Positions 1-58,824 of a stretch of 64,000 bases of DNA are shown here, one piece after another. Within the stretch, counting starts at the first letter, position 1, and each line of letters opens with the position of its first letter. The position numbers were made by a program, and so were the translations under genes. Under the pieces are notes generated by a model that saw only the letters and a program-made list of their open reading frames with translations, was not told the DNA's origin and searched no databases. Origin of the DNA: Candidatus Latescibacterota bacterium. Lineage in GTDB: Bacteria; Latescibacterota; UBA2968; UBA8231. The stretch is from NCBI GenBank assembly GCA_965223905.1, contig CBDCXV010000010.1, forward strand, positions 1,248,001-1,312,000. The letters run 5' to 3'.

Positions 1-730
1 CCGCGGTCGCTCCACCGGGATGGCCGATCAGCTTTTCGTATTCGGCGGCGCCGACGAGCCCGCCGATGAGGCCGCGCATCTGCCCCGACTGCAGGAACGG
101 GTAGAGATCGGGGGCCATCACCGCAGTGCAGCCCGCGGCAAAGGCGAGATTGTGCCTCTCCTGCCCGAACGGCAGCCACCAGAACTCGATCGAATCCCCG
201 GCCGCCAAGTCGATCACCAGGTCGAAGTCGGAGAGACCGGCGACGCGGGCGGTAAGCGGCACCTCGGCGGTGGCGGTGCCCCAGTTGTCCTTGGGGAAGG
301 CGTCGGCGAAATCCTGGCCCATGTTGATGATGACGCTGTAGGTGCCGGGCTTGTACCCCATGAAGGCGTAATCCTCGCCGTAGGTTTTTTCGAACTCCGC
401 CGCGGTCTCCTCGAGCGCCAGCTGGGCGAGACCGGGCGCTTCCGGCCACAGGCAGACGGCGACGACGCCGACGTCGCGGCTGAAGAGGTGACGCAGCAGG
501 GCCTTGGCCATCGGCTGCATTTCCGGTTCGGTGCTGGCTCCGTAGGCGAAGGAGAGCAGGACGAGGGGATCATCCTTTCCCGCGACTTTTTCGACCTCGT
601 CGAAGACAGCCTTCACCTGTTTCTTGGGTTTGACCGGGAACTGCAGATCGGTCAGCAGGGGTATGGCGACCCCGAGGAAGACGGCGGCGAAGATGATGCG
701 GCGGTCGATGCCGAGAAGCCGGTCGATCAT
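1..730 (-). CDS. Conserved membrane-anchored hypothetical protein of the GlmL-like operon (3' end runs off the window)
   Basis: Not in the ORF track; read manually from ATG 730: MIDRLLGIDRRIIFAAVFLGVAIPLL...STEPEMQPMAKALLRHLF...GCTAVMAPDLYPFLQSGQMRGLIGGLVGAAEYE. Open to the window edge; start overlaps the stop of the upstream gene. Confidence 0.8.
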   Translation of the reverse strand, partial: MIDRLLGIDRRIIFAAVFLGVAIPLLTDLQFPVKPKKQVKAVFDEVEKVAGKDDPLVLLSFAYGASTEPEMQPMAKALLRHLFSRDVGVVAVCLWPEAPGLAQLALEETAAEFEKTYGEDYAFMGYKPGTYSVIINMGQDFADAFPKDNWGTATAEVPLTARVAGLSDFDLVIDLAAGDSIEFWWLPFGQERHNLAFAAGCTAVMAPDLYPFLQSGQMRGLIGGLVGAAEYEKLIGHPGGATA

Positions 731-1383
731 TCCTCACCCCCTCCGACGTAGGATCGCTCGATACCGAAGATGATGCGCAGCGAGGTGGCGATGGCTCCGA
801 GACTCACCCCCAGCAGAATGCCGCGCTTGGCCGCGAGGTTGGGGACCGACATCAGCCAGTCCGCAAGGACCGGAAGCGCATCGGAGATCATGGCCCCGAT
901 CGGGACGCGGCCGATCATGACGATGACCGCGGCCACGAGGAGGATGGCGGCATCGGCGCTGCGGGCGCGGAAGGTGCGGTACGCCGCCGAGGCTATGAAG
1001 AAGGCGAGCATCGAGAACATCGTCGCCGTGCAGGGGATGTGGACGTACTGGAACATCCACTGGTAGGCCCCTTCCTGGGCCTGCGGGGCGAACGGTCCGG
1101 CGCCGTCGTTGTGGACGACGAAGAGAAACATGACGCCGAAGCTCGCCAGGGCGACGGCGTTGTACCCCCAGCCGGCGACCCGCTGCCGGATGCGGCTCCA
1201 GTGCAGGTTGAGCAGGCTGAAGAGCCCGAGGAAGTAGGCGAAGGCGAAGACGATGCGCAGCCACAGGGCCAGCTCGCGCTCGACCTCCTGTGCGCCTGGG
1301 TGAGGGATGTAAAAGACCGCCACCGCGACGACGCCGAAGGCGAAGGCGGCCAGTACCGGAAGAGTGCGGCTCAGAAACAGCAT
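727..1383 (-). CDS. Conserved multi-pass membrane protein (GlmL-like operon)
   Basis: 218 aa, about 6 hydrophobic segments, motif ATMFSMLAFFIASAAYRTFRAR; tightly packed with neighbours. Confidence 0.8.
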   Translation of the reverse strand: MLFLSRTLPVLAAFAFGVVAVAVFYIPHPGAQEVERELALWLRIVFAFAYFLGLFSLLNLHWSRIRQRVAGWGYNAVALASFGVMFLFVVHNDGAGPFAPQAQEGAYQWMFQYVHIPCTATMFSMLAFFIASAAYRTFRARSADAAILLVAAVIVMIGRVPIGAMISDALPVLADWLMSVPNLAAKRGILLGVSLGAIATSLRIIFGIERSYVGGGEE

Positions 1384-1392
1384 TTCTCCAGC

Positions 1393-2592
1393 CTACAAAG
1401 CGGTGAACAGGTGCGTGAGCCAGGGGATTCCGGCCGTCGCCAGCAGCGAGCCGGCGATCAGGACGAACAGCAGCAGTCCCTTGCCGATGTCCTGTCCCTT
1501 CAGGCTGCCGAGCAGCCGGGGCTCGCGGGACAGGTAGGCGCTGGCGGCGTACAGCTCCTCGCCGAGGAGAGTGTAGTCGCAGGTGGTGACGAAGAACGGG
1601 AGTTGGGTGAAGGCGTCGGTTCCGGCGATCTGGATCGCCCCGGTGGAGGCCCCGGTCTCGGCGAGCAGCAGCGACTCGGCGTAGAAATACCCCATCATGA
1701 TGTGGGCCGCCGGCTTCTCGCGCACCATGATCCCCTCGACCGCGGCGGCGTAGCTGAACTGGTCGGTGCCGGCGATGAAGATGTTGTCCGGGTTGTAGGC
1801 GTCCGGCCGCCCCGCCTCTATGTACGCCTCCTTCACCGTCTCCTGGCTGACCGACATCACCACCGGGTCGGCGTTGGTCACCTTCAGCAGGGTGTCGTAC
1901 TCCGCGGTGCGGCGGGCGACGCGGCCGAGGATGTTGACGGCGGCGATGGTGGAGATCGCGTTCATCTCGCGAAGGCCGTGGATGAAGAGCACCGACCTGC
2001 CCATCTCGGTGGCGCGGCCCAGCGCCTCGTCGAGCGCCTCGAGGCCGGCGATGCGGCGCACGAAGAGGTCCTTTCTTTTCGCCATCGAGATCGAGATCAG
2101 GATCGCCGCGGACAGCGCCACCCCGAGGAGGAGGTTGTTGAGCTTGCTCCAGTCGAACAGCTGCGCCGTCGCCGTCGCCTCGACCGCCTTGCCGCGGCCT
2201 TCCCCGGCGGCGGTTCGCACCCCGACGCGGAGGAAGTAGGGAGTGTCGTCCTTCAGCGCCACCCGCTCTCCGTCGACTTCGTACTTCTCGACGTGGGCGA
2301 ACTGGTGCCGCGAGGTCTCCGGGCCGAAGCCGAAGACCGAGCGGTCTTCCGACTGCAGGCCGGAGCCGGCGGCAACGGAGGCGGCCAGGTGGAACGGCCC
2401 GGTGGCGAGCTCGGCGACGTAGATATTGTAGACGGCGTCCCCGGGGGCGGCCTCATCGAGCGGCCAGGTCACGGTGATGCTGCCGCCGCTGTCGTTCGGG
2501 GTGTCGAAGGCTTCGAAGGGGGGCGGCGCCGCGGCCTGCCCCCAGGCCAGGGACGGAAGCAGGAAGAGCAGCAGCAGGCGGGAGGGTTTCAT
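1393..2592 (-). CDS. Signal peptide + FN3-like domain + TM + DUF6754-like domain protein
   Basis: N-terminal signal, DTPNDSGGSITVTW FN3-like start, TM helix, then VRRIAGLEALDEALGRATEMGR...GYFYAESLLLAETG...DYTLLGEELYAASAYLS recognised as DUF6754-like. Confidence 0.75.
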   Translation of the reverse strand: MKPSRLLLLFLLPSLAWGQAAAPPPFEAFDTPNDSGGSITVTWPLDEAAPGDAVYNIYVAELATGPFHLAASVAAGSGLQSEDRSVFGFGPETSRHQFAHVEKYEVDGERVALKDDTPYFLRVGVRTAAGEGRGKAVEATATAQLFDWSKLNNLLLGVALSAAILISISMAKRKDLFVRRIAGLEALDEALGRATEMGRSVLFIHGLREMNAISTIAAVNILGRVARRTAEYDTLLKVTNADPVVMSVSQETVKEAYIEAGRPDAYNPDNIFIAGTDQFSYAAAVEGIMVREKPAAHIMMGYFYAESLLLAETGASTGAIQIAGTDAFTQLPFFVTTCDYTLLGEELYAASAYLSREPRLLGSLKGQDIGKGLLLFVLIAGSLLATAGIPWLTHLFTAL

Positions 2593-2783
2593 TCCATCAA
2601 TACCATTTGAGCTTCAACTGGCTGAAGTCAGCTGCACAAAGCTTCGGCCGCGTCCGGGCAGATTCCGCGGTCGTGCATTCGAGACCCGCCCCCTTGCGCG
2701 AGGAGCAGATTCCTTGCCCAGTGTAGTCGGATTGAAGCGGCCCTTGGGCTGGGCGCTGTCGGATCCGGGTAGTCCCACCATCC

Positions 2784-3911
2784 TCACTGCTCGATCAGCT
2801 CGACGTTGGCGCGCGGGACGACCGCCCGGGTCCCGTCTTCGAACTCGACCTCGAGCACCCGCACCCGGGCCCCGCTTTCGACCTCCCGAAGTTCCGGGAT
2901 GAGGGCGCGCACCCGGGCGACGCGCCCGAAGTGAGGGGCGCGGATTACGCGCAGGGCGTCCCCTTCGGCCATGCCTTCCTGATTCTCTTTCGCCGCGGTT
3001 GCCTCGTCCCGCTCCGGGCTCGGCGAGGGGATGAGGATCTCCGGCCGCTGGACCCCGGCGCGGATCTGGGTCGCACCGGAGATCGAGGCCTGCATGCCGT
3101 CGCACGAGCGCAGGATGTCGAAGGTATTGCGCGCCATGGCTATCTCTCCGAACCCCTCGGTGACGATCACGGTGGTGCCGATATCCTCGGCGCCGGTGAT
3201 GGCGACGCCGAGATCGTAGCCGAGCAGCTCCTTGAGATCGCGGTCGTGGATGCCGCCGGCGATCACCCCGGCGGCCCCGGCCCCGGCCGCCTTCTCCAGC
3301 GCCTCGATGCCGGCGATGCCGCCGGCGACCAGCACGGCGCCGCGGCAGCGCTCGTCGATCTGCCCTGCCCGAAGCGGTTCGTCGTGAGCCTGCGACAGGA
3401 CCCGAAGCGGCCCCCAGCGCTCTCCGCCGACGCCGAATATCCCCTGCACGTAAGCCCCCTCCGTCTCGACGACGACCCCCTCTCCGGGAAGCTCCTCGAC
3501 GACCGCTCCGTCGACGAAGGCGGGAATCTCGACGCTCGACGGCGGCTTGCGCAAGAGCACCTGGCCGGTCACCGAGGAGATGCTCTCGACGACGCCGTCG
3601 GTCTCGGCAGGGACAACGGTCTTGAACCACTTGATCCAGGGCCGCGTCTCGGCCAGCGGCTCCCCCTCCCGCACCGGATCCCCTTCCTGTTTCAGCATGT
3701 AGTGGGGCAGGTCGGCCGCGGTGACGCCGAGCCGGTTGACGAGGTTCTGGGTCACCGCGTCGCCCGGCAGCTCGGTGCGCGCCACTACCTGGTCGCGGGC
3801 GACGCGGTCGCCGAGACGCACCGCGAGCTCGCCGGCCAGGGGCAGCCGCCGCGTTTTCCGCAGTTTCGTGTGGGCGCTGACGCGCAGGCCCGGGGTGTAG
3901 GCGTGGGCCAT
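2784..3911 (-). CDS. Conserved hypothetical protein with barrel-sandwich-hybrid (biotinyl/lipoyl-like) repeats and a swivel-like domain
   Basis: Start MAHAYTPGLRV at 3911 shares a base with the upstream stop; VRLGDRV..DQVVA and KQEGDPVREGEPLA repeats; ALEKAAGAGAAGVIAGGI; C-terminal KOW-like segment. Confidence 0.75.
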   Translation of the reverse strand: MAHAYTPGLRVSAHTKLRKTRRLPLAGELAVRLGDRVARDQVVARTELPGDAVTQNLVNRLGVTAADLPHYMLKQEGDPVREGEPLAETRPWIKWFKTVVPAETDGVVESISSVTGQVLLRKPPSSVEIPAFVDGAVVEELPGEGVVVETEGAYVQGIFGVGGERWGPLRVLSQAHDEPLRAGQIDERCRGAVLVAGGIAGIEALEKAAGAGAAGVIAGGIHDRDLKELLGYDLGVAITGAEDIGTTVIVTEGFGEIAMARNTFDILRSCDGMQASISGATQIRAGVQRPEILIPSPSPERDEATAAKENQEGMAEGDALRVIRAPHFGRVARVRALIPELREVESGARVRVLEVEFEDGTRAVVPRANVELIEQ

Positions 3912-5746
3912 CAGCCCGGCTCCGCGGCTTCGGGGTAGGATCCGAGCGCCTCGTTCCACGCCTGCACTTGTTCGCGGCGCTCCGCGCCAGACGCGGCGAA
4001 CTGGATCGGCCGCCCGCGCCCGTCGAGCACGAGGCCGGCAGCGCCTCCGCGCACCCGCGCATGCAGCGCGCGGCCGCTGCCCGCCCCGGCGTCCCAGCCC
4101 CGGGCCGGCTCGAGGGAGAGGCCGGCTTCCTCGCCGTCCGCGAGGTCGATCCGCACCAGCTCACCCATCCGCAGTTGGCCGGACACCGATCCAGACGCGC
4201 CGCCGGTGAGGCTGAACTCGCAGCAGACCTCCCCCGGCCTGCCGCTGCCGGCAAGGGCCGCGCAAGTTCCGAGATCGATCAGGCAGTCGCGCTCGAAGAC
4301 ATCGGAGGCGGCCTGTTCGTCCAGGGCAGCCAGGGCCCCGAGGTGGGGCATCATGAATATGCTGTCGACGGCAAGGCGGGTGATCCCCGCCGGCTGGAAC
4401 GCGTCGATCAGCATCGCCGCGGCCTGCACCCGGCGCGGGGCGTGCGAGAGCACTCCGCCGCTGCCGACGAGAAGGTCGAGGGCCGTCATGTCGATCAGGG
4501 ATTCCCCGGTCGCCGACTGCTCGAAGACGTCGGACAGGGTGCGTTCCGACTGCACCCCCTTGAGACCGACGGCGAGGGCGCGGTGCTGGAGGAAGGCGAG
4601 CCGCAGGGCCTCGCGCGCCAGGGCGTGCTCGAGCTGCAGTTCCTCGAGCTGCTGCGGTATGGTGGTCGGCCGGATCATCTTGTTCTTGATGCGGTCGCGC
4701 AGGTCGGTCTCGTCGATGTCGAAAGGTATCCAGCGCATGGCGTTCTCCAGCCCGGCCTCGTTGAGGACGTTGGAGATGCTGTACGACATGCCGAGGTTGG
4801 CGCTCACCGAACGGTTGAAGACCGGCTCTTCCTCATCCGCTGCGGCGCCGTCGGACCTTGGGCGGAAGACGCTGAAGACATCGGTGGTGGCGCCGCCGAT
4901 GTCGACGCCGATGACGTCGATGCCCCGGCGGCGGGCGATGGTCTGGATGATGCGGCCCACCGCGGCCGGGGTCGGGACGATGGGCGCACCGGTCCAGGAC
5001 ATCAGCTTCCGGTACCCCGGGGCCTGCGCCATCACGTGCTCGAGAAAGAGGTCGTGGATCACATGCCGGGCGGGTCCGAGGTTCTCCCTCTCGAGCACCG
5101 GCCGCAGGTTCTCGGTGACGGTCAGGGCGGTTCTCTCCGCCAGCACTTTTTCGATCTCGGAGCGGGCGTCGCGATTCCCCGCGTAGATGAGGGGGAGCCG
5201 GAAGCCGCTGCCGAACCTCGGTCTGGGGTCGGCCGCGGCGATGAACTCGGCGAGCTCGACGACGTGGGAGACGGTGCCGCCGTCGGTGCCGCCGGAAAGC
5301 AGGAACATGTCGGGCCGCAGCCGGCGGATGCGTTCGATCTTCTCGTGGGGAAGCCGGCGGTCGTTGGCGGCGAGGACGTCCATGACGATGGCGCCGGCAC
5401 CCAGCGCGCAGCGCTGCGCGCTTTCCCCCGTCATCGATGCGACCACCCCCGCGACCATCATCTGCAGCCCGCCGCCGGCGCTGCTCGTCGAGATGTAGAT
5501 ATCGACGCCGCGGTCGCCCGCGGCCGGGGTGATGATCCGCTCCCCGTCGAGGATCGTCCGCCCCGACAGCTCCTCCACCTCGGATATGGCGTTGAGCACG
5601 CCGCGCGTGACATCCTCGAAGGGGGCCTCGACCGTGGTCGGGGCCTCGCCCCGGAAGGTCTGCCGGCAGATTCCGTCCGCCTGGCGCTCGATGAGGATCG
5701 CCTTGGTCGTGGTGCTGCCGCAGTCGGTGGCGATGAAGACGTCCAT
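3911..5746 (-). CDS. GlmL/MutL-like (glutamate mutase accessory family) ASKHA-fold ATPase
   Basis: Start MDVFIATDCGSTTTK; second phosphate motif VDIGGATTDVFS; STSSAGGGLQM and LSGGTDGG. No glutamate mutase genes in the window. Confidence 0.8.
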   Translation of the reverse strand: MDVFIATDCGSTTTKAILIERQADGICRQTFRGEAPTTVEAPFEDVTRGVLNAISEVEELSGRTILDGERIITPAAGDRGVDIYISTSSAGGGLQMMVAGVVASMTGESAQRCALGAGAIVMDVLAANDRRLPHEKIERIRRLRPDMFLLSGGTDGGTVSHVVELAEFIAAADPRPRFGSGFRLPLIYAGNRDARSEIEKVLAERTALTVTENLRPVLERENLGPARHVIHDLFLEHVMAQAPGYRKLMSWTGAPIVPTPAAVGRIIQTIARRRGIDVIGVDIGGATTDVFSVFRPRSDGAAADEEEPVFNRSVSANLGMSYSISNVLNEAGLENAMRWIPFDIDETDLRDRIKNKMIRPTTIPQQLEELQLEHALAREALRLAFLQHRALAVGLKGVQSERTLSDVFEQSATGESLIDMTALDLLVGSGGVLSHAPRRVQAAAMLIDAFQPAGITRLAVDSIFMMPHLGALAALDEQAASDVFERDCLIDLGTCAALAGSGRPGEVCCEFSLTGGASGSVSGQLRMGELVRIDLADGEEAGLSLEPARGWDAGAGSGRALHARVRGGAAGLVLDGRGRPIQFAASGAERREQVQAWNEALGSYPEAAEPG

Positions 5747-5759
5747 TTTCGATCCTGCC

Positions 5760-6116
5760 CTACTGCCGGTCCGCGTCCCGGTTCTGGCTCCGGTCACCTC
5801 GGCTCGAGATGGCCTCCACCAGGGCGTCGACGGCGCGGCGCTTGGCGAGCAGCCGGGTGAAGCGTTTCAGCTCCTCGGGGTTGAAGATCAGCGAGATAAA
5901 GGGGCTGAGGAAGACGAGAAGCTGACTGCCGACGAAGTTGAGCGGCCGCCCGACTTCGAGGAGCATGACCGCCGGGGCGGTCAGTCCGCGGCGCACGAGG
6001 AAGTCGGCGATCCGCTCGATCAGCTCCCGCTCCGCAGCGTCGATGTCGCGGTCGGCAGCCGATTCCACGGCGAAGGCGTGCGACCACCAGGCCCGCATCC
6101 GCTCAACCCGGGACAT
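5760..6116 (-). CDS. Hypothetical protein
   Basis: MSRVERMRAWWSHAFAVES...LIERIADFLVRRGLTAPAVMLLEVGRPLNFVGSQLLVFLSPF; in operon arrangement. Confidence 0.7.
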   Translation of the reverse strand: MSRVERMRAWWSHAFAVESAADRDIDAAERELIERIADFLVRRGLTAPAVMLLEVGRPLNFVGSQLLVFLSPFISLIFNPEELKRFTRLLAKRRAVDALVEAISSRGDRSQNRDADRQ

Positions 6117-6534
6117 GCCGTCCGACCAGTTCCTCCAGCTTTTCCACCCCGACCCCGGCGGCCGGCAGAAAGAGGCCCCGGAAGCTGTCCAGCCGGCTGG
6201 GACGGGGGAACGGGCTGAGGAAGAGCCCGTCATCGCGGACCTCGACGCGGCGTATCTCCTTCCAGGCTCGCAGCCGCCGCCGGAACAGGTGGCTCACGGC
6301 GATTCCGGCGGCGCCGATCTCGTAGCGGGTCGGCAGGAGGAACCGCGACATCGACCCGCTGAGAACGGCGAGGGCTATGGCGCCGTACAGGAGGCCCTCG
6401 AAAGCGACCGCGGCGAGGGCGGAGAAGGCGAGAATCGCCGCCACCAAAGCCGCGGATTTCGGCCACGGCTCTTCGAAGAGAGGGTGGCAGACCCAGGCAC
6501 AGCGGGCCGGATGGGGGGTGGTTTCGCAGCTCAT
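6103..6534 (-). CDS. Small membrane protein (2 TM + PH-like beta domain)
   Basis: Two TM helices then FLLPTRYEI...W..IRRVE...LFLSPFPRPSRLDSFRGLFL; overlaps the next gene. Confidence 0.7.
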   Translation of the reverse strand: MSCETTPHPARCAWVCHPLFEEPWPKSAALVAAILAFSALAAVAFEGLLYGAIALAVLSGSMSRFLLPTRYEIGAAGIAVSHLFRRRLRAWKEIRRVEVRDDGLFLSPFPRPSRLDSFRGLFLPAAGVGVEKLEELVGRHVPG

Positions 6535-6627
6535 CGGTTAGTCGGGCTCACGGAGGTGGCGGGGGAGGCAATCGGGCAGTGTTAATTCTGGCTCCAGAAG
6601 TCCCGAGATGCCAAAATTGGGGATCTG

Positions 6628-6867
6628 TCAACTTCGACGAGCATCCTGAATCGCCTGATTGAAGGCTAAGGACCAGGTTCCTCTGACCCATGTCGGAATC
6701 GTACTCGGAACCTGATTGCCGAGAACTACAAACTCCGCATCTGGATCGGCCTTGTGGCCCTCCTGATATCCCATCTTCCAGGCTTCCTCCATCGGCATAT
6801 GGCCACTGCCTTTGTCTTGGTAATAACTGCGAAATTCGACGAATCGTCTCCGCATCAGCTGGATCAT
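6628..6867 (-). CDS. Small protein downstream of the CRISPR array, weak Rmf/CrpP-like pattern
   Basis: 79 aa; strong SD GAGGTG 7 nt before ATG; AWKMGYQEG...P...W...A pattern. Confidence 0.5.
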   Translation of the reverse strand: MIQLMRRRFVEFRSYYQDKGSGHMPMEEAWKMGYQEGHKADPDAEFVVLGNQVPSTIPTWVRGTWSLAFNQAIQDARRS

Positions 6868-7055
6868 CTTGTCTCACCTCTGGTTGGAGGGCCTTCGCCC
6901 TCTGAATGGGCGCCTGCTATCTCGGCGTGGGTTCGGTGGGATCATCCCCTCCCGAGCAGGCCTTCGACGGTTGGCATGTTATTGGCCGCCGGATGGCCTG
7001 GAGTTTATCCGGGATGTCCGGTTTTTCACAGGGCTTGTGTGGAACATGTGGATAA

Positions 7056-8904
7056 CGCTCAACAAGGCGGGGATGCTTACCCCGACGACACTTGAAGATA
7101 CTGAATGTGGTTGACCTAGACCTTGAACCGCACCGTCGCTCAACGAAGGCCGGGGCGCTTACCCCGGCGACACCGCCGCACGAACTTCACCTAACTGACT
7201 CATTAGAAACGCTCAACGAAGGCCGGGGTGATTACCCCGGCGACACGACGATGGCGTGATCGTCACCTCCGAGGCTCGTGGCCGCTCAACGAAGGCCGGG
7301 GTGATTACCCCGGCGACACAATGGCGACCAGGGACTGCCCGCCCACCGAACGGCCCGCTCAACGAAGGCCGGGGTGATTACCCCGGCGACACGCGGCCCA
7401 CCCCCTGCTGCTACTATACTACCTGTGCTCGCTCAACGAAGGCCGGGGTGCTTACCCCGGCGACACTGGGGAAACGAGGTTTATGAACACCGGCGGCGCG
7501 GTCGCTCAACGAAGGCCGGGGTGCTTACCCCGGCGACACGGAGTGGCAATCGGCGATGATTCACTGGACCCTCGTCGCTCAACGAAGGCCGGGGTGCTTA
7601 CCCCGGCGACACGGCCCGCTTGACGCGGTGCGGGTCTGGATCGGGAACGCTCAACGAAGGCCGGGGTGCTTACCCCGGCGACACCCCTATACGATTGTCC
7701 TTGACATCAGTAACACCCTACCCGCTCAACGAAGGCCGGGGTGCTTACCCCGGCGACACGCATCCCGAAGCTTTTCCATCTTGTCGGCAACCTTCATCGC
7801 TCAACGAAGGCCGGGGTGCTTACCCCGGCGACACGAGGCCGACGCGCAGCTGATTCAGACCTGCCTCGATCGCTCAACGAAGGCCGGGGTGCTTACCCCG
7901 GCGACACGCCCAGCTGGACCTATGAGATGGCCCAGGGCCATAGGTCGCTCAACGAAGGCCGGGGTGCTTACCCCGGCGACACGGGCGGAGACCAATGCCG
8001 CGTTTCCGTTTGTTTCCAGCCCGCTCAACGAAGGCCGGGGTGCTTACCCCGGCGACACTTCGGGCAGTCGCCGTCTCGCAGCCACTCGCCTAAGGTTTTT
8101 CCCGCTCAACGAAGGCCGGGGTGCTTACCCCGGCGACACATGGAGATCCCGTCGTTCCGAAGAACGACCGCCCCGTTCGCTCAACGAAGGCCGGGGTGCT
8201 TACCCCGGCGACACTTGGCAGCTTGCCAGACCAGAAGCCACCTTGGCCTTGCCCAATGTCGCTCAACGAAGGCCGGGGTGCTTACCCCGGCGACACTCGG
8301 TCGCACCAGTCACTGGATAGGCATCAGGAGGGAGCACGCTCAACGAAGGCCGGGGTGCTTACCCCGGCGACACATCCGAAATCACATTGACTGTAGCCCA
8401 AGCCACCCGGATGCCCGCTCAACGAAGGCCGGGGTGCTTACCCCGGCGACACCCGGGCGGACGGTCTGTGCACGGAATGCGGGGGAGAACGCTCAACGAA
8501 GGCCGGGGTGCTTACCCCGGCGACACGCTTATGGGGGCCTACGCTTTCGGATTCAATCGCGGACGCTCAACGAAGGCCGGGGTGCTTACCCCGGCGACAC
8601 GTGTTGGCCGCTTCCGGCGGCAACCTGGCCGAAGTTGTTGAACGCTCAACGAAGGCCGGGGTGCTTACCCCGGCGACACTTTTGAAGTCCCCGACGTGGC
8701 AACAGTAGGCCACCTTCGCTCAACGAAGGCCGGGGTGCTTACCCCGGCGACACTTGCGGAAGAATTACTTGCTTCCTCTGTGTGTCGTAGTCCGCTCAAC
8801 GAAGGCCGGGGTGCTTACCCCGGCGACACGAGAGGGTGGACGTCGACGGGTCCGTTCACCCGAGGGACGCTCAACGAAGGCCGGGGTGCTTACCCCGGCG
8901 ACAC
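7056..8904 (-). CRISPR. Type I-G CRISPR array: 25 repeats (24 intact + degenerate terminal repeat 7056-7091), 24 spacers of 35-45 nt
   Basis: 37-bp repeat GTGTCGCCGGGGTAAGCACCCCGGCCTTCGTTGAGCG (minus strand) with GCCGGGGT/ACCCCGGC hairpin; variant repeats only at the low-coordinate (trailer) end. Confidence 0.99.
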
Positions 8905-9108
8905 TGCTAATTTCTGCAAAAACGGGGAACCGAGCCGAAACAAGATCCTTTCTCGGAAGCGGAGATTTCAGAGATGGCTTGTTTGTAGGCAATTCGCTCG
9001 CTCGAGAACGATACTGTTAAGAGAAATCGGTACAAATGGGGAGAAACTGGCCCTAACGACGACGCTCCGTACCCGGCACTTTCGGATCACCAAGGGTTCG
9101 CAAGTGGG
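8905..9108 (-). promoter_or_regulatory. CRISPR leader
   Basis: AT-richer non-coding stretch between the cas2 stop and the first perfect repeat, opposite the degenerate end. Confidence 0.8.
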
Positions 9109-9399
9109 TTAAAGCACCCAAGGCTGGCCAAGCTCGTGAAGTTGGGTTCGACCAAATCGCAGTCTGGCGTCTTCCAAGCGCCCGGGGAACCGATACACGA
9201 TCACCGAATCACGATGACGGTCGATGACGTCCTGGATCTCGCCGACCATGCGGGCCAACCGCTCAGGGGACAGGCGGCACTCGAAGACCGATAGCTGCAC
9301 CCGTTGACCGTACTTCTCGCAGACTTCGGCGATATGCCTGAGCCGGGGGGCACCCGTGCTTTCCGTGTCGGCGATGTCGTAGGTAACCAGAACGTCCAT
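9109..9399 (-). CDS. cas2: CRISPR-associated endonuclease Cas2
   Basis: MDVLVTYDI...RLRHIAEVCEKYGQRVQLSVFEC...DSVIVY, 96 aa. Confidence 0.97.
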   Translation of the reverse strand: MDVLVTYDIADTESTGAPRLRHIAEVCEKYGQRVQLSVFECRLSPERLARMVGEIQDVIDRHRDSVIVYRFPGRLEDARLRFGRTQLHELGQPWVL

Positions 9400-9401
9400 C
9401 G

Positions 9402-10418
9402 CTACGTCATGACAAAGGGTGGGTACGCCGGAAGATCACCGCGCAGATGGCGTGCAAGCAACGTCGCCTGCACCGATGGCAACGCCCACCTGCCTATTCG
9501 TCGATCGGAAATGGCATGATATATCTCTGCCTCCTTGTGGGCTTCCCATTCCTTGATCAGGCTCGTTCTTCCCTCATCGCTCATGTAGACGCCGCCTCCC
9601 GGCATCCGCACGAAACTATCCTGGCCTACCTGTCGGCGGCGAATCAATGACACGACGAACCGGTCTGTCAGCGCCCGCAGCTCTTCGGCAAGGTCGAGGG
9701 CAAGTGACGGCCTGCCCGAACGCGGGCGATGGAAGAATCCCATCTGGTAGTCCAGGCCGACGCCTTCTACCGCGCCGATGAACTCCGTAACCAGCAAGCC
9801 GTAGCAGAACCCGAGCATTGCATTGACCGGATCCCTGGGCGGCCTCCGGGTCCGCGCTTCGAACGAGAAATTGCTCTTCGAAACGGCTTGACCGACCGCG
9901 CCGAAATAGGCTCTGGCGGCATCGCCTTCGATTCCTCGAACATGGTCGGCGGTGTCGACGCCGGCCAGTCGAGAAATCCGGTCCGAAATCTGTGCGGCGC
10001 GCGTGGCAAGACGACGAGCTTCAGCCGGATCTTTCTCATCCCGTGCCCAGCGGTCGACAACTTTCCTGCTGTTCTGGAGTTTTGCCGCTACGATCGCTTT
10101 GGACAACGCCAGCGAGTGTTCGTCATCCGTAACCGCCCGATACAGGGATATTCGCAAGTGAACGTTGCCGCCGGTCGAGGCGCCAACAACAAACCGAACC
10201 GCTCCACTCATCTTCAGCGCCGTGACGCGAACGCCGCGCCGCACGCACGCCTCCAACGCCTGGGTGGTGATCTGCGCGCTGCCTAACATGACGACCGCGT
10301 CGATCGCTTCCAGGGGAATCCGTTGGCTGCCTTCGGGGGAAGTTACCAGCAGCGAACCGCGGCGATGCTTCACGCGGGCCCGATGGTCGCGGACGTACAC
10401 CGTGCTCAGGTAGCGCAT
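9402..10418 (-). CDS. cas1: CRISPR-associated endonuclease Cas1
   Basis: True start MRYLSTVYVRDH (ATG 10418); GIEGDAARAYF, RTRRPPRDPVNAMLGFCYGLL, GFFH, SLALDLAEELR. Confidence 0.96.
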   Translation of the reverse strand: MRYLSTVYVRDHRARVKHRRGSLLVTSPEGSQRIPLEAIDAVVMLGSAQITTQALEACVRRGVRVTALKMSGAVRFVVGASTGGNVHLRISLYRAVTDDEHSLALSKAIVAAKLQNSRKVVDRWARDEKDPAEARRLATRAAQISDRISRLAGVDTADHVRGIEGDAARAYFGAVGQAVSKSNFSFEARTRRPPRDPVNAMLGFCYGLLVTEFIGAVEGVGLDYQMGFFHRPRSGRPSLALDLAEELRALTDRFVVSLIRRRQVGQDSFVRMPGGGVYMSDEGRTSLIKEWEAHKEAEIYHAISDRRIGRWALPSVQATLLARHLRGDLPAYPPFVMT

Positions 10419-11023
10419 CTGAATACAACGTCGTTCATGTACCTGGTCACCCTGTTCGGGACGCTCGTCAGTCCGGGCAAACAGTGATGCTGCAGCTGGC
10501 ACTCCGTGCAGCGAGAATCGTTGGGAGCACCCGGCAGAGATGCTGTGAGTAGCTGCTGCCGGATTTCTTTTATGATCGCGCCGACCTGACGACGTAGGGC
10601 CGGCGTGAAAGCGACGCGAACCCGTCGCCTCGGACCGCCGTACCAGACGTGCCCATCCGGTATATCTACGTCGAGCATCTCTTCGAGGCACAATGCCTGA
10701 GCGCAGAGCTGCAGATCGGCCGCGGAGCCATGCCGGACGCCCGATTTGTATTCGACAGGACGGACCCCTTCCGAATCGATCTCGACAGCATCGGCGCGGC
10801 CCGTCAGTCTCAGGGTCTCCGACCACAGCGGAATGGATCGCAACACCTGCCGTCCTCGTTCTTGCCTGTGGCGTCCGCTGTCGACACGGCGATGCGCATG
10901 GGTACCCCTGACCGTATGCGCGTTGTCGCTCCAGACACCGTCGCAGTGGATCAGGGCGCATTGACGGGGGCAGTACTCGAAGTGCTCGATAGCGGAAATC
11001 GGGACAATGGGCTGGTCGGTCAC
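10406..11023 (-). CDS. cas4: CRISPR-associated exonuclease Cas4
   Basis: ISAIEHFEYCPRQC, GRADAVE, PVEYKSG, QLCAQALCLEEM, CTECQLQHHC (Fe-S cysteines). Confidence 0.96.
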   Translation of the reverse strand: MTDQPIVPISAIEHFEYCPRQCALIHCDGVWSDNAHTVRGTHAHRRVDSGRHRQERGRQVLRSIPLWSETLRLTGRADAVEIDSEGVRPVEYKSGVRHGSAADLQLCAQALCLEEMLDVDIPDGHVWYGGPRRRVRVAFTPALRRQVGAIIKEIRQQLLTASLPGAPNDSRCTECQLQHHCLPGLTSVPNRVTRYMNDVVFRCAT

Positions 11024-11920
11024 AGCTGTTCGGCCCCAAACGCCCTGGTCGTATCAGCTGAGCCTCTAGGCTTGAACTGGACAGTCTGCCACCCGTCGTG
11101 CACTCCGATTCGGGACCATGCGGCTTTTCTTCTGGGCGTCCAGACATCCATGAGGGCATCGATGCCGGCGGAATCAAGAGGGTGACGCCAAGCCGGCCAC
11201 ATGAACCGGCGCTCGCGTCTGCTCCCCAAGGTTCCCAGCCATCCCCTTTGGGTTTCGCGTGCATCGGACGAACGATCCAGCCGTTCATCAATTCCTGCGC
11301 CCCGCACCGGCAACATGGCCAAGCCGAAGAAAGCAAGCACTTCGACCACAGGGTCGACCCATATAGAGGTCGTATCCGACTGCGAACCCAGCCTCGTCTG
11401 GTCGAAACCCAATCCGTTGTCCTTGACCCGGACGGCACGGCCAGCGAACGAGTCACCGATGCGGTCGATGGAGGGCACTACCTGCGCGTGAACCTTCGTC
11501 AGCCGATGGTGCAGCCACTTGATGGTGCCGGGCCCGGCTGGATCGAAGGGTGCGTGAGCGACTTCTCCGTTTCCGTCAACACAGAGATCCGTCATGGTCG
11601 ACGACAGGGTCCACGAATGTGGGTGACTGCGCGCGGCCCTTGCCCGTGCGGCGAACTCTTCTACCGGAACCTTTCGCCGCAACTGGCCGGCGTCGTTCCA
11701 GTGTTCGGCAATCGGGAGGTCGGTTAGGAAGCCCGTATCCGGCCACGAAGCCACGAGGGCTTCGACAGGGTCAATATCCGCGGCCGAAAGGACGGCCACG
11801 GGCGTGCTGTCTGCGGTCCAGTGAAGCCGGATCGCTGGTATCCAGCACCGTAGCTCCCACCGCTGCCAACCAGCCGTTGAGCCAGGATGCCGGAAGCCCG
11901 GGGCATGTCAGGCTACGCAT
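11020..11920 (-). CDS. cas8g: Type I-G large subunit Cas8g (short Csb3/Cas8u2-like form), +1 frameshift near 11839
   Basis: ATG overlaps the cas3 stop (TGATG): MRSLTCPGLPASWLNGWLAAVGATVLD; removing one base joins it to ...IRLHWTADSTPVAVLSAADIDP...NGLGFD...PVVEVLAFFGLAMLPV; about 299 aa; position in operon. Confidence 0.75.
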
Positions 11921-14742
11921 CAGTGTACCTCCATGTAACCCGGGTCGTCGCCGGCCGATACCGCGTGGTCGGCCTGACGCAGGATCGCTTCGAGCAGGGC
12001 CAGTCCCCAGGGTCCGAACCGGTCGTTGAGCTGTCGGAAACGGGCAGGTTGGTCCCAGTCGACGATGGAGAGGTCGGCCGGTGCTTCGACAGGTACCCCT
12101 TCGACTGACCCGGACACGAAGCCGGTGGTGCCGTCAGCGACTGGAGGCACAAGGGGCCGGCCGCTGCCGTGGTGGCTGATAACCAGATGCAGGAGCAGTT
12201 CGCGCAGGGATGGGTCCACCGAGGCTGGGTGGAGTTCCACCCACTGCCGAACCAGTCGGGCCGAAAGCTCCTCGTGCCGGCCTCCTCGTGGCCAACCGGC
12301 TGCGGCGCGCGCCTCGCTCCATCGGTGGCGAGGCATGTTCGACTTGGCCACTCTGGTGCCGCCGTGCTTTCCGGCGGGATCGAGCCAGAGCTGGAAGCGC
12401 CCGTCCGCCTTGCCGATGTCGTGCATCCGGGCGGCGCGGTCCACTACCTCGGCGAGATCGGCCGCAATGCCGAGGCGCTCCGAAATCGACCGCGCCCGCA
12501 ATCCCACCGCCCGGCAGTGTGGGTCCAGATAAACAGCCGTCCTGGCCAGCGATACCTCGTCGAACTCGTTGCTCCGAGGTTCGCCGCTGTCCTCCTCCTT
12601 GGGCAGCCGGGGCACCTCGTTGGGGGCCGTGACGACTTCCCGGTTCAAGGCGCCGAGGAGGTCCTGCCACTCCCCTTCCTCCCACCCGGCCGGCCTTGCC
12701 GCGGCAACGGCCGTCAGTATCTGCTCCACTGCTTCGGCCCGCTCGGCATCGTCGATGTCCTCATCGTCGCCCGCGATGCCCAGCGCTCGGTCGATGAGAC
12801 CACCAATGGAGATGCCGCAGAGCCGCCGGAGGGCCGCGGCGTCAAGGGACAAGCCATACTCTAGGACGGACATATCCACGACGGGCGACACGGAGGATGT
12901 ATCCCATCCGAACTCGTCCAGAAGACCTCGGTCGGATGGCAGCACAAGCGTGTCGCCGGGCCGAAGACCGTCGCTGGAGACCTTCTCAAGCGTTACACCG
13001 TCGGAACCCAGGCGGCAGAGATCCTCATCCTCGCCGAGCGCGTCCCGGGCCTCGTTGATCGGGACCTCGACCGCCTCGCGGTCGCTGGCCCTCGGCCACA
13101 GCAATTCCCCTTCGTCCGGGACATAGGCGCGCCAGATCAGCGACACTGAGTAGTCCGGGCCGGCGATACCGGAGAAATACGGTTCAACGGGAGCCTCGCC
13201 TTCCGGTGGAGTCGTCGTCTTCATCCACTCCCAAAGAAGCCCGGGAAGGACCTCGGGCGCCCGTCCAGGATCGTCGCAAGGCACTCCCAGAATGCCAGCT
13301 ATTCCTCGGGGCGACAGGTTCACGGTGTCCGCGCCGCCATCCCGCTGGGCAGCTTCCAGCCGCTGAAGCACGGTCTCCGGTTCTGCGCCGTAAACGGGCC
13401 AGGCAGTGGCGTCCCCGGTGGTTGCCCTGCTTCTCTTCACCGGCTTGGGTGGCAGATGTACGTAAATCGCGCGGGCATGGGCATGGCGTCCCAGCCGGTT
13501 CAGCCTGCCGAGGCGCTGAGTGAGGGCCCGTACGCCGCACGCCTCGGTGACGAGATACTCCGCGTCCACGTCGGCTCCGACCTCCAAGGTCTGGGTGGCG
13601 ACCACGATCAGATGACGCTGGCGGCTGGTAGACGCATCGCGGGTGGAGGCCATGCCGTGCACCGAATCGAGAATCCGCGTCCGGGTTCGCTCTGCTTCCC
13701 GTTCCCGGGAGCGGCCGGTCAGAAGCAGGACCTCTGCCGGTTCCTTCGCAGTCAGCTTCCCCAACCGATCGAATGCCTCCCTCGCAACCCGGGGAGTGTT
13801 GGCGAACACCAGGCACGCCGCCGGCGCGGGTGCCTCCCGGATCAGGAAGAGCGCCGCCTCGGCCAACCGCTGCCCGATGTCGCCGGGTTCGAAGACGCAC
13901 ACCTCCATCGGCTTCACCGCGTCCAACCTTTGCCGCACGACCGGGTGTGCTTCATCGTCGGCGTCGAGATCGAACCGGGATTCACCGGCATTACCGGTGG
14001 CTGTAAGCGCAACGATCTTCGGCTTGGAGCGAGCCGGGCCGAAGATGGCCTGTGCGCCGGGGGTGCACTCGGCGAGGGCGATAAGCAAGGTCCGCAGGTG
14101 AGGCCCCAGGTGCGCCTCGTCCAGGAGAACCAGGCTGTCGGTGCCGGCCATGGCGGCGTCAATCGGGCGCATCGACCTCGTCGATCCGTAGCCGCGAAAG
14201 AGCAGCCGGGACCCATACATCGGGAGGGTGGATAGAAGAACGGCGGGGGTGGACGGGTCGGTCGGACGGCGCGAGGTGATTCCGCCGCGAAGCCGGATCA
14301 CTTCCAACGGCTCAGCGTTCGGTCCGGCAGACAGGGAGCGTAGGCGGTCGGCTACCGCGGGGACAAAATCGGCCGCCTCGCCTGCGATTCCCCGCGACGT
14401 GGGATCACCAAGGGCACTGCTGATTGCTTCGCCATGATCGGTCACAGCGTCCACCAGCAGACGCCGGTTGACCACCCACCAGATACGGGTCGGCGCAGTG
14501 CGGTGCGCAGGTGGGCGGTCTGCCTGCGACGCAATCCACCATATCGCGATGTCGAGGCAGGCCGTCTTTCCCAAGCCGGTGGGTACGCCTACCTCGGCAG
14601 GCCACTCTTCGGTATCAGCGACCTGCGCAGCTAGACGCGTCTGCCAGGGAAACGGATCGCGCCCGTTGATCGCTCGATAGAACTCGTCGAAGCCGGGCAT
14701 GGGGGGCAGGACAGGAGGCGGCGCCGGCGCCCTCGCTTCCAT
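11920..14742 (-). CDS. cas3: Type I-G Cas3 helicase with C-terminal HD nuclease
   Basis: PFPWQ, PTGLGKT, VVNRRLLVD, DEAH, ATQTLEVGADVD, QRLGRLNR; C-terminal HDIGKAD, RHE, SHHGSGRP, RQADH. Start at ATG 14742 overlapping the csb2 stop. Confidence 0.95.
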   Translation of the reverse strand: MEARAPAPPPVLPPMPGFDEFYRAINGRDPFPWQTRLAAQVADTEEWPAEVGVPTGLGKTACLDIAIWWIASQADRPPAHRTAPTRIWWVVNRRLLVDAVTDHGEAISSALGDPTSRGIAGEAADFVPAVADRLRSLSAGPNAEPLEVIRLRGGITSRRPTDPSTPAVLLSTLPMYGSRLLFRGYGSTRSMRPIDAAMAGTDSLVLLDEAHLGPHLRTLLIALAECTPGAQAIFGPARSKPKIVALTATGNAGESRFDLDADDEAHPVVRQRLDAVKPMEVCVFEPGDIGQRLAEAALFLIREAPAPAACLVFANTPRVAREAFDRLGKLTAKEPAEVLLLTGRSREREAERTRTRILDSVHGMASTRDASTSRQRHLIVVATQTLEVGADVDAEYLVTEACGVRALTQRLGRLNRLGRHAHARAIYVHLPPKPVKRSRATTGDATAWPVYGAEPETVLQRLEAAQRDGGADTVNLSPRGIAGILGVPCDDPGRAPEVLPGLLWEWMKTTTPPEGEAPVEPYFSGIAGPDYSVSLIWRAYVPDEGELLWPRASDREAVEVPINEARDALGEDEDLCRLGSDGVTLEKVSSDGLRPGDTLVLPSDRGLLDEFGWDTSSVSPVVDMSVLEYGLSLDAAALRRLCGISIGGLIDRALGIAGDDEDIDDAERAEAVEQILTAVAAARPAGWEEGEWQDLLGALNREVVTAPNEVPRLPKEEDSGEPRSNEFDEVSLARTAVYLDPHCRAVGLRARSISERLGIAADLAEVVDRAARMHDIGKADGRFQLWLDPAGKHGGTRVAKSNMPRHRWSEARAAAGWPRGGRHEELSARLVRQWVELHPASVDPSLRELLLHLVISHHGSGRPLVPPVADGTTGFVSGSVEGVPVEAPADLSIVDWDQPARFRQLNDRFGPWGLALLEAILRQADHAVSAGDDPGYMEVH

Positions 14743-16193
14743 CACCGTGCCAGTTCGCTTTCTGTCGGCGATTCGACCGGCACGCAGAGCCCGAACCCGC
14801 GCTGCCGGCCGGCACCGATCACCACCGGTCCCTGAACCGGCTCGGCGAACCAGAGCTCGACATGGGAGTAGGGGAGCCCCGGCCTGCCCGGCCGGTTCAC
14901 CTCCACCGGGGAAAGATCCACCGCTCCGCGAACAAGGGGGCCGCGCGCTTCCCGGAACGCGCCCGGCGCCGGCAGACCAGCGTGTCTGCACCACCGTGTC
15001 ACTTCCGCCAGGTCGAGAGGACGACGGCGCTCGTGAATCGCCGGAAAGGCAGTTACCCACCGGTGGGACGACCGGCACCAGCGGCTTGGGTTCGCGGCCA
15101 AGGGACGAGATTCGTCATTGCGGGCGGAAACCGAAACGTCGATGCCTCGACCCGTCAGATGCCTTACTGCGAATGCGGCATCGCTCGCCCGCTGACGATC
15201 TACGGCATGGGACCCGGGGGGCAGCCACAGCGCCAGCCCGTGAATTCGTCCGCGAGACCGGGGGAACCCGACATCGGGGAGGGCGAGGTAGCGTGCAAGC
15301 TCGTAACCTTTCGCGTCGAACCCGTGGCCGTGAAGCACCGCGGGAGGGTCGCCATGTATCTCCTGGTATTTGCTCAGGACGGCCGCCTTGAACAACTCCG
15401 TGATGGTTGAGACGCGGCGCCCGGAGACCGCGGTGTCGAGACGCAGCCAGGCCACGACAGCACCGCTGTCGATTGGGGCCGCGGTCCCAGGAGATCGATA
15501 CGGTGCCTTGTGGTTGAGAGCAGGAAACTGGGCGCGTCCGATGTCGGCACCGTGTTCGCACCAGGCCTCGTACATCCCATCGAGGATGAGCAGGTCGCCG
15601 GGGGCGGAAACGCCAATCATCAGGTCTCCACCCGGATCGGGGAGAAAGGCATCCGCGGATGAGACTGATTCGGGCACTTGCGTCATGACGCGAACACGCA
15701 CCGGGGAGTCAGCTGCCCCGAGGTAGCCAACTCGAGCAGCGCGGGCTCGGAGAGAGGCCAGCGTGGTCTCGGGCGGGGATTCGTCCCAGGCATAGACCAC
15801 GTGAGGATGGCGGGGCGTGACCCGAACCCCGGGCCGGTTCGGTACGCCGACGCGGCCGACGTACTCCTGATGAACGTCGACCACTTTGCGGCCGTTTTTT
15901 CTTTGACTGCTGAAAGTCCCCTGGTGCCTCACTACGTACCGCTGCTGCAGGACGTTATACTCCCGCTCTGGGTGAGCATGGATGACAGGCGGCGGCAACC
16001 GCTCGAACCACTCCAACTCCGAGCCGTCGGTCACCCGGCAGCGTTCTCCCGTACCGTCCGCGGCAACAAGGGCGGCGAACAGACGGGAGGGCGCCGGCGG
16101 CCACTCACCCGCGGTCAGGCGGCCGGTGTTTGCCGTCCCGTCGGGATCGGCGCGAAACGTCCCGTGCAGAAACTCTACCGAGACGGCAAGCAT
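14742..16193 (-). CDS. csb2: Type I-G Csb2 (Cas5/Cas6 fusion)
   Basis: EWPPAPSRLFAALVA, YLGAADSPV, VLHGH, C-terminal GPVVIGAGRQRGFGLCVP. Confidence 0.93.
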   Translation of the reverse strand: MLAVSVEFLHGTFRADPDGTANTGRLTAGEWPPAPSRLFAALVAADGTGERCRVTDGSELEWFERLPPPVIHAHPEREYNVLQQRYVVRHQGTFSSQRKNGRKVVDVHQEYVGRVGVPNRPGVRVTPRHPHVVYAWDESPPETTLASLRARAARVGYLGAADSPVRVRVMTQVPESVSSADAFLPDPGGDLMIGVSAPGDLLILDGMYEAWCEHGADIGRAQFPALNHKAPYRSPGTAAPIDSGAVVAWLRLDTAVSGRRVSTITELFKAAVLSKYQEIHGDPPAVLHGHGFDAKGYELARYLALPDVGFPRSRGRIHGLALWLPPGSHAVDRQRASDAAFAVRHLTGRGIDVSVSARNDESRPLAANPSRWCRSSHRWVTAFPAIHERRRPLDLAEVTRWCRHAGLPAPGAFREARGPLVRGAVDLSPVEVNRPGRPGLPYSHVELWFAEPVQGPVVIGAGRQRGFGLCVPVESPTESELAR

Positions 16194-17389: not shown

Positions 17390-17596
17390 GCGGCCACCTC
17401 CGTTTCAGTGAATTCGATTGAGAAGTACTTAGGGGAAAATACCAGCGGCCCGGGACATTTACAATCATTTGCAGCAGTCTCAAACACCACAACTGGTCCG
17501 GGGCCCGGGTGTCCGCGGCCAGGGTAAGAGCCGGACTCGGGATTAGAAGGACGGCCGATTACCTCCAGGGGCCATCCCCACTGGCAGGGCCGAAGA

Positions 17597-18313: not shown

Positions 18314-18338
18314 GGTGTGTCCTTCCTTCAGTTGCGGA

Positions 18339-20256: not shown

Positions 20257-20505
20257 CTCAGATCCTGTTGCTCCTGGGCACGAAATCACCGGGCCTGGAC
20301 TTTACGCTCTCACTGCCCATTGTGTCTCCCAAGGTAAAGATAGCACGGGGGTAGGCAAGGATTTCAGGAGCGCTCTTCCCGTCCTTTCCGCCAGTATATC
20401 CAGGCGCAAAAACAGCTTGCAGCGCGCCAATAGCTTGCGGTGGCAAAGCTTGAGTTCAGCAGAAGATCCGCAGGCGAGGCGATCACTCCATTCCCGGGAA
20501 ATCCG

Positions 20506-58821: not shown

Positions 58822-58824
58822 GCG

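Follow-up and report, generated by a model that had tools for sequence, protein, structure and literature searches.

A conserved cluster that pairs a MutL/GlmL-family ATPase with four membrane proteins, and its possible role as an undescribed inner-membrane complex

Here we describe a gene cluster from a 64,000-nucleotide stretch of DNA of a Candidatus Latescibacterota bacterium (contig CBDCXV010000010.1 of assembly GCA_965223905.1, positions 1,248,001 to 1,312,000), the whole of which is called the window throughout. The cluster joins a gene for an ATPase of the MutL/GlmL family, which belongs to the acetate and sugar kinase/Hsp70/actin (ASKHA) fold, to the genes of a partner protein, of two small membrane proteins and of several larger membrane proteins. 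An earlier note, made from the sequence of the window without database searches, had seen seven co-directional, closely packed genes at positions 1-6534 and had proposed that they form a self-contained, ATP-driven membrane machine. Open reading frame (ORF) calls, Pfam matches and homologues confirm the seven genes, g1 to g7, all in one direction on the minus strand, and the conserved unit is eight genes long, so that the window cuts it inside g7. The GC content of the region is 66-70% and long ORFs abound on both strands; the minus strand was taken as coding because homology decides between the two.

Results

The cluster and its genes

g1, 6103-6534, minus strand: 143 amino acids (aa), in which a hydrophobic hairpin (about residues 25-61) precedes a small C-terminal domain
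g2, 5760-6116, minus strand: about 118 aa, with a conserved RPLNF.GSQ motif and one hydrophobic segment; the longest ORF reaches 6233
g3, 3911-5746, minus strand: 611-aa ASKHA ATPase of the MutL/GlmL family; the longest ORF begins at 5797
g4, 2784-3911, minus strand: 375 aa, with domains that resemble a barrel-sandwich hybrid, a swivelling beta/beta/alpha fold and KOW
g5, 1393-2592, minus strand: 399 aa, with a signal peptide, a periplasmic fibronectin type III (FN3) domain, a transmembrane (TM) segment, a cytoplasmic DUF6754 domain and a C-terminal TM segment, the sides of the membrane being predicted
g6, 727-1383, minus strand: 218 aa, without a known family; six TM segments are predicted
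g7, 2-730, minus strand: 243 aa up to the window edge, with an N-terminal TM segment and a predicted periplasmic alpha/beta domain
g8, beyond position 1 of the window (L001:14295-15020 in the closest relative): 241 aa, with about six TM segments by hydropathy
Sigma-70-like promoter match, 6585-6614, minus strand: a consensus match just upstream of g1

Homologues suggest 6116 as the probable start of g2, and those of g3 begin at the methionine of MDVF, which places its start at 5746. For g4, 25 of 25 aligned orthologues open with M[AT/P][HQ].YTPGL, in agreement with the start at 3911 that the earlier note had given. The genes g3 and g4 overlap by 1 nucleotide (nt) and g6 and g7 by 4 nt, while gaps of 13 nt, 191 nt and 9 nt separate g2 from g3, g4 from g5 and g5 from g6, so the spacing is operon-like. 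The promoter match is the sole promoter-like site within positions 1-7200 and agrees with 9 of 12 consensus positions, against a mean of 0.6 sites in shuffled sequences. No known RNA or riboswitch, the cobalamin riboswitch included, reached its gathering score in the seven loci scanned, and the scan of the window gave just two sub-threshold chance matches.

Conservation across genomes

Alignment of DUF6754, the domain carried by g5, against contigs from one genome per species gave at least 581 confirmed places, and the best 80 of these form the locus set used here. The presence of each gene was judged by tblastn with the seven window proteins, several of the misses being contig ends: g5 is present in all 80 loci, g6 and g7 in 79 each, g4 in 69, g3 in 67, g2 in 65, and g1 in 50. 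The matches never depart from one gene order and one strand, and this order is kept across Latescibacterota, genomes labelled Gemmatimonadota, and Brocadiales. When all ORFs of the loci were clustered, g8 was found directly after g7 in 73 of the 80. Where present, g2 always stands immediately ahead of g3, and g1 is confined to the clade of the Latescibacterota and Gemmatimonadota type. With both gene order and sequence kept in 80 loci of other genomes, the cluster is not a product of chance, and the conservation on which the earlier note had staked its proposal holds across phyla.

The closest locus, L001, lies on a Latescibacterota chromosome and encodes proteins 86-96% identical to those of the window. 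Where the window has 9 nt between g5 and g6, 1.6 kb are inserted in L001 (L001:11259-12454), and the insert contains a 117-aa ORF and a gene for an MpaB/Lcp-like oxygenase; this junction of the operon is thus one that tolerates insertions.

The ATPase g3 and the absence of a mutase

The product of g3 matches the Pfam family MutL (PF13941) from end to end (431.4 bits, E-value 4.9e-129, profile positions 2-450 of 450), against a gathering score of 27. Its best matches in NCBIfam are the GlmL equivalog NF040745, at 238.9 bits (1e-70) and below the curated cut-off of 475, and the Or-4 protein of the ornithine pathway (2.9e-63); against TIGR01319, the model of the GlmL subfamily, it scores 176.6 bits, under the cut-off of 204.05. 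Across 26 orthologues of 63-77% identity, the nucleotide motifs DCGSTTTK, GGTDGG, DIGGATTD and SGG.LSHAP do not vary. In the established terms for ASKHA proteins, the phosphate-1 motif is DCGSTTTK (D8-K15), the phosphate-2 motif DIGGATTD (D282-D289) and the adenosine motif S429-P437, all three invariant in the same 26; the earlier note had read DCGSTTTK and DIGGATTD in the ATPase, and both are there. It is strongly supported that g3 belongs to the MutL/GlmL family as an intact ASKHA ATPase, and its motifs predict ATP hydrolysis.

Beyond the MutL family, g3 has an additional C-terminal domain of about 120 aa, and near its second phosphate-binding motif there are weak, sub-threshold matches to Hydantoinase_A and Hydant_A_N (3.9e-4 and 7.8e-3), which are present in the natural g3-g4 fusions described below as well. 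Among structures in the PDB, a search with the single sequence returned one chance-level match and a profile search none at an E-value of 1 or less.

GlmL is described as an accessory factor of B12 glutamate mutase, and no family of that enzyme was found among the window ORFs scanned, which included 34 beyond the cluster. The earlier note had allowed that mutase genes might lie just past the window edge; none was found in the flanks of the near-identical L001. Nor was one found among the conserved neighbour clusters of the 80 loci (within 10 kb; ORFs without conservation between loci were not all scanned). With its scores below the GlmL cut-offs and no mutase in the window, in L001 or among the conserved neighbours, the description of g3 as an orphan ATPase, without a link to any B12 mutase, is strongly supported.

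The partner protein g4 and the g3-g4 pair

The only Pfam match of g4 is Biotin_lipoyl, which at 19.1 bits stays below its cut-off of 22.1. The predicted model (mean predicted local distance difference test, pLDDT, of 85) has no whole-chain analogue in the PDB and matches known folds at the level of domains, with low TM-scores: KOW/SH3 domains (NusG, Spt5, PetP), barrel-sandwich hybrids (BesA, the SI3 insertion of RNA polymerase) and the swivelling domain of RraA, to which a profile match (E-value 0.019) also points. One homologue, P0207, passes the cut-offs of RnfC_N (37 bits against 25.6) and of KOW. This protein and the relatives P0171, P0191, P0192 and others are 435-475 aa long, have about 80 extra N-terminal residues and match g4 in two stretches. 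Orthologues across phyla are 49-66% identical, and a profile search of the family found 3381 representatives at an E-value of 1e-3 or less.

Two ideas about g4 were considered and set aside. A match to the 75-kDa subunit of complex I (7.5e-5) in a Gly/Ala/Val-rich stretch was not reproduced by the profile and was treated as a matter of composition. The idea of a lipoylated or biotinylated carrier arose because LplA lies upstream of g1 in loci of types B and C (listed below). In the canonical biotinyl/lipoyl motif the modified lysine sits at the tip of a hairpin; in g4 the hairpin is longer than the canonical one, and the only near-invariant lysine of the stretch, K97, is an arginine in 1 of 25 orthologues (L052). 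There being no invariant lysine in the hairpin, the carrier was rejected and the LplA neighbour treated as synteny.

For the earlier note's expectation that the ATPase would form a confident interface with the 2784-3911 protein, structure prediction gave support: the g3-g4 complex has an interface score (ipSAE) of 0.79 versus 0.02 for the best of three controls. Of 157 solved complexes 116 attain this mark, and of 215 mismatched pairs 2 do so, these counts being rough since our own alignments were used. Runs of the prediction have at least 93% of their contacts in common, with a partner pLDDT of at least 85. In the predicted interface, the invariant g3 loop R-IKNKMIRPTTIP (350-370) is packed against the most conserved motifs of g4 (GG..D.DL, YDLGVAITG, TEGFG, GATQIRAG and the KOW end), which reach the nucleotide cleft, at residues 11, 286 and 435-438 of the nucleotide site. 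The prediction is supported independently because natural fusions exist: among the best 150 g4 relatives there are 2 fused proteins, of 995 and 1003 aa, each with an N-terminal MutL domain. Such fusions occur on several contigs; one cluster has 12 members, and in the other a protein of a Candidatus Ozemobacteraceae bacterium is recorded as 'glutamate mutase L', an instance of the mislabelling that the earlier note had suspected. A heterodimer of g3 and g4 is thus strongly supported as a prediction.

The membrane half and the small proteins

The protein g5 matches DUF6754 (PF20539) over nearly the whole profile (385.1 bits, 1.6e-115, positions 2-256 of 257) and has more than 8000 homologues. 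Hydropathy places TM segments at 150-172, followed by KRKDLFVRR, and at 369-387. The model of residues 27-140 has an FN3 fold, with FN3 domains as the top Foldseek matches (2.1e-4, TM-score to the target up to 0.68); the window protein does not match Pfam fn3, and longer homologues carry PF00041. In the AlphaFold2 model, built from 21 sequences, residues 174-367 of the DUF6754 domain have a pLDDT below 50, and only the FN3 part was used. Among the best 120 of 500 matches, DUF6754 proteins of 700-2000 aa keep the C-terminal module while their N-termini vary by lineage (Planctomycetota, WOR-3, Eremiobacterota and others), carrying fn3 repeats or domains of PF13360 and PF01011, which we take, like PF13570, to be propellers of the pyrroloquinoline quinone (PQQ) kind. 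One protein with such an N-terminus is named 'BamB' by JGI, which fits the propeller reading. The ESM Atlas gave no usable look-alikes of g5 outside DUF6754, and profiles of g5 and g7 found nothing significant in the PDB.

Simple hydropathy scans of the L001 orthologues gave the TM counts: six segments in g6, about six hydrophobic ones in g8, and one at either end of g7, whose full-length orthologues are about 278 aa long with the second segment at the C-terminus. The FN3-TM-DUF6754 protein, the six-TM protein and the membrane-anchored protein of the earlier note are therefore borne out by Pfam, model and hydropathy together, with the refinement that g7 is anchored at both ends. By the positive-inside rule, DUF6754 would be cytoplasmic and the g7 domain periplasmic. 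Identities across phyla are 49-74% for g6, 45-68% for g7 and 48-72% for g8, and it is strongly supported that g5, g6, g7 and g8 are a fixed membrane set.

No Pfam family matches g2, g6 or g7 of the window, and a scan of 24-29 members each of g6, g7 and g8 found no family common to more than 6 members, all of the matches being weak. BPD_transp_1, the permease family of importers of the ATP-binding cassette (ABC) type, matches none of 29 g6 and 24 g8 sequences at an E-value of 1 or less. Look-alikes of g6 in the ESM Atlas are unnamed 'hypothetical protein' clusters, most commonly from Nitrospirota, Bacillota and Chloroflexota, which we take as a lead on range only. A pseudo-symmetric dimer through paralogy of g5 with g7 and g6 with g8 was tried and rejected (hhalign probabilities 0.5% and 0.4%). 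For the small proteins, an assignment of g1 to the bPH proteins was dropped (bPH_6, 19 bits against a cut-off of 22, matched in 0 of 12 homologues), and 0 of 9 scanned g2 homologues have a Pfam family.

Linkage to Opp genes and other neighbours

In 44 of the 80 loci, co-directional genes of an Opp-type peptide ABC transporter flank or interleave the cluster, interleaved in 11 and adjacent in 33 more:

Type A, 20 loci: an SBP_bac_5 gene immediately before g1
Type B, 11 loci: OppD-OppF immediately after g8
Type C, 11 loci: g1-g2-g3, SBP5-OppB-OppC, g4-g8, OppD-OppF, tightly spaced
Brocadiales with opp, 2 loci: OppD-OppF after g8

On a FastTree phylogeny of g5 these labels are clustered, with 8 changes for 5 groups and some long branches flagged, and OppD-OppF after g8 occurs on both sides of the midpoint. 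One interleaved operon (L017:5962-7542) contains a DUF772 transposase gene between OppB and OppC.

In L001, the genes past g8 encode an aldo/keto reductase and an alpha/beta hydrolase; those upstream of the cluster encode a glycosyltransferase, an M19 dipeptidase and an AAA_21 protein. The neighbours conserved elsewhere in the locus set are KsgA, a class IV aminotransferase, SBP_bac_5, RNase III, LplA, a TonB-dependent receptor, a PorV-like protein, a PD40 peptidase, UbiA and ABC components.

Surroundings in the window

Directly upstream of the cluster lies a CRISPR array (7064-8927) of about 25 repeats of about 37 nt, spaced 72-82 nt apart, followed by Cas genes on the minus strand (9402-17389):

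9402-11456, minus strand: 684-aa protein with a C-terminal Cas1 domain behind an N-terminal part of 350 aa
11920-15078, minus strand: Cas3-like helicase/HD protein
14745-16193, minus strand: Cas_GSU0054
16196-17389, minus strand: Cas_GSU0053

The GSU markers presumably denote a CRISPR-Cas system of the type I-U/I-G kind. The block (window 6900-17400) is missing from L001 (L001:3156-6054), where the AAA_21 gene, two uncharacterised genes and the M19 dipeptidase gene stand directly upstream of g1; their counterparts in the window are at 17600-21723. It looks like a recent insertion or loss.

The 34 further window ORFs belong to CRISPR-Cas, peptidase, VWA, methyltransferase and other families. 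A 3208-aa ORF on the minus strand (48178-57801) combines domains of polysaccharide lyase 14, Calx-beta, cadherin and fn3 with a C-terminal FlgD_ig domain and probably encodes a secreted or surface protein that degrades polysaccharide; adjoining it on the plus strand (46462-47600) are a sigma factor of the extracytoplasmic function type (Sigma70_r2/r4) and then a zf-HC2 anti-sigma protein. A protein with an FGE-sulfatase domain (22734-24221) and a histidine-specific S-adenosylmethionine methyltransferase (Methyltransf_33, 32132-32968), both on the minus strand and 8 kb apart, are of the family pair that we take to make ergothioneine (EgtB/EgtD). Between 56000 and 64000 the GC content drops from about 0.70 to 0.54-0.59, and two PD40/DPPIV_N proteins (57838-59886) lie inside this stretch.

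Discussion

The reading that we favour, with somewhat less than even confidence, is that the cluster encodes an undescribed inner-membrane complex with its own cytoplasmic ATPase, linked to the uptake of peptides or nutrients or to work on the envelope. The data fit one system of two modules, g(1)2-3-4 and g5-8. In such a complex, g3 and g4 would form a head that docks on DUF6754, the predicted cytoplasmic domain of g5, and g2 may tether this head to the membrane; ATP hydrolysis by g3 would drive conformational work in a base of g5-g8, and this base would display the FN3 domain of g5 and the alpha/beta domain of g7 in the periplasm. The work would most likely concern peptides or other substrates on the envelope side, through uptake or handling, rather than glutamate fermentation, because many genomes have opp genes beside or within the cluster and g5 carries different periplasmic domains in different lineages.

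Several observations weigh against this reading. Eight loci whose upstream flank spans the full 10 kb, all of the Brocadia/Kuenenia type (L056, L060, L067, L069, L070, L072, L074 and L076), lack g1-g4 beside g5-g8; Brocadia genomes encode g4 elsewhere, 61-62% identical to a Brocadiaceae g4, and the two halves can therefore be unlinked. Three opp genes separate g3 from g4 in 11 loci. The tie between the ATPase pair and the membrane proteins is one of gene order only, and it is charge and hydropathy alone that suggest a cytoplasmic, soluble DUF6754. Searches with g5-g8 detected no family of known transporters, channels or motors. As for the peptides, no opp genes lie near the window locus or L001, and since few events are needed on the g5 tree, the adjacency of opp may be partly inherited synteny. 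What the earlier note had called self-contained in seven genes did not stand: an eighth gene lies outside the window, opp genes are attached or interleaved in 44 loci, and the ATPase half is not adjacent in the 8 Brocadia/Kuenenia-type loci.

The alternative that survives best, which we nevertheless think unlikely, is uptake coupled to ATP-dependent chemistry: g5-g8 would be a channel or carrier, and g3/g4 a cytoplasmic enzyme of the hydantoinase or kinase type that activates what comes in (a peptide, a cyclic amide or a derivative of an amino acid, for instance), by phosphorylation or otherwise, and so traps it, much as glycerol kinase traps its substrate at GlpF. ASKHA proteins are mostly kinases, g3 has its weak matches to Hydantoinase_A and Hydant_A_N, the swivelling beta/beta/alpha domain of g4, by its RraA fold match, is the phosphoryl-transfer fold of phosphoenolpyruvate-utilising enzymes, the predicted interface touches the nucleotide-site residues of g3, and among the neighbouring genes are those of Opp, of a class IV aminotransferase, of peptidases and of a dipeptidase. 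However, no substrate site or conserved phospho-acceptor residue was identified, g5-g8 are unlike any known carrier, and the identity of g3 across phyla is at the level of a core machine, which is unusual for a peripheral catabolic enzyme. The set is also retained by anammox bacteria, which are autotrophs.

Less probable still is a reactivase or chaperone, a role that has been proposed for GlmL/MutL towards glutamate mutase: the membrane complex g5-g8 would be the client, and g3/g4 would spend ATP on the repair, loading or exchange of one of its cofactors or subunits. The clear membership of g3 in the MutL family speaks for it, as does the swivel of g4, which may resemble the swivelling domain of diol dehydratase reactivase, but no cofactor-binding family or motif was found in g5-g8 and no cobalamin or other riboswitch in the window or the seven loci scanned, and g3 lies under both GlmL cut-offs. 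We give little credence to an actin-like filament or positioning system in which g3 would polymerise at a membrane anchor of g5-g8, in the manner of MreB-MreC-MreD: the ASKHA fold and the bitopic and polytopic membrane partners would suit it, but g3 sits in the hydantoinase/GlmL branch and not in the actin, MreB, ParM or FtsA families, and its predicted interface with g4 spans a large surface that includes the nucleotide cleft. A true accessory of glutamate (or ornithine or lysine) mutase, with the mutase elsewhere and the membrane genes as unrelated neighbours, is scarcely credible, since despite the GlmL and Or-4 matches and database names such as 'glutamate mutase L', g3 reaches half of the curated GlmL cut-off, has no mutase among the annotated neighbours within 10 kb in the 80 loci or in the 64-kb window, is fixed beside g2, g4 and g5-g8 in 67 of 80 loci, and is fused to g4 and not to a mutase subunit.

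If an inner-membrane complex with its own ATPase is what the cluster encodes, thousands of genomes, among them Latescibacterota, Gemmatimonadota, anammox Planctomycetota, WOR-3, Eremiobacterota and Ozemobacteraceae, would hold an unrecognised energy-using membrane complex whose ATPase has been misannotated as a fermentation accessory. It would bring a new type of motor into envelope biology, provide first functions for DUF6754 and for four families without a Pfam entry, and correct metabolic reconstructions that deduce glutamate fermentation from g3. The predicted g3-g4 pair could serve as a first structural handle on the MutL/GlmL family, for which sequence searches found no solved relative. 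More speculatively, and in our view rather doubtfully, the cluster could define a new class of envelope machine, whose motor is an ASKHA heterodimer and not of the ABC, AAA+ or P-type kind, and whose inner-membrane base of four proteins has periplasmic domains that can be exchanged; such a machine would work beside Opp-type importers or replace parts of them, and would have been hidden under the name 'glutamate mutase L' in many, mostly uncultured, phyla. The earlier note knew of no functional description, and in open-access PMC and bioRxiv we likewise found no literature on DUF6754, PF13941 or this cluster; the sole functional statement found for the family labels MutL/GlmL a reactivating chaperone (PMC4682846).

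Comparison with known systems

In layout, with a cytoplasmic ATPase, polytopic subunits and periplasmic domains, the cluster resembles the mechanotransmitting envelope ATPase systems MacB, FtsEX and LolCDE and the Opp/Dpp importers. The likeness ends there: the putative motor here is of the ASKHA and not the ABC type, and g5-g8 match no ABC permease family. The N-terminal half of g4 is a putative barrel-sandwich hybrid, a fold shared by the N-terminal domains of RnfC and NqrA and the lipoyl-like domains of membrane fusion proteins, whereas the remainder of g4, an RraA-like swivel and a KOW-like domain, is unlike them.

Among ATP-using pairs, the B12-enzyme reactivases DdrAB, PduGH and EutA combine an ASKHA ATPase, a swivelling-type domain and a second subunit, as g3 and g4 may do; g3 differs in having no sequence match to any solved structure and no B12 enzyme in its neighbourhood. 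The A-type subunits of hydantoinase, oxoprolinase and acetone carboxylase share the weak g3 matches and belong to two-subunit, ATP-dependent enzymes, but these matches are sub-threshold and g4 has no match to a HyuB-like family. To our knowledge, no membrane complex accompanies these enzymes.

The nearest relative remains the GlmL/MutL protein of B12 glutamate mutase, which g3 resembles in its full-length PF13941 match and its intact ASKHA motifs. It departs from that protein in its sub-cut-off NCBIfam scores, in its roughly 120 extra C-terminal residues, and in a seemingly obligate partner, g4, to which it is sometimes fused. Whereas GlmL serves a mutase, g3 has none nearby and stands instead in fixed linkage to four membrane proteins.

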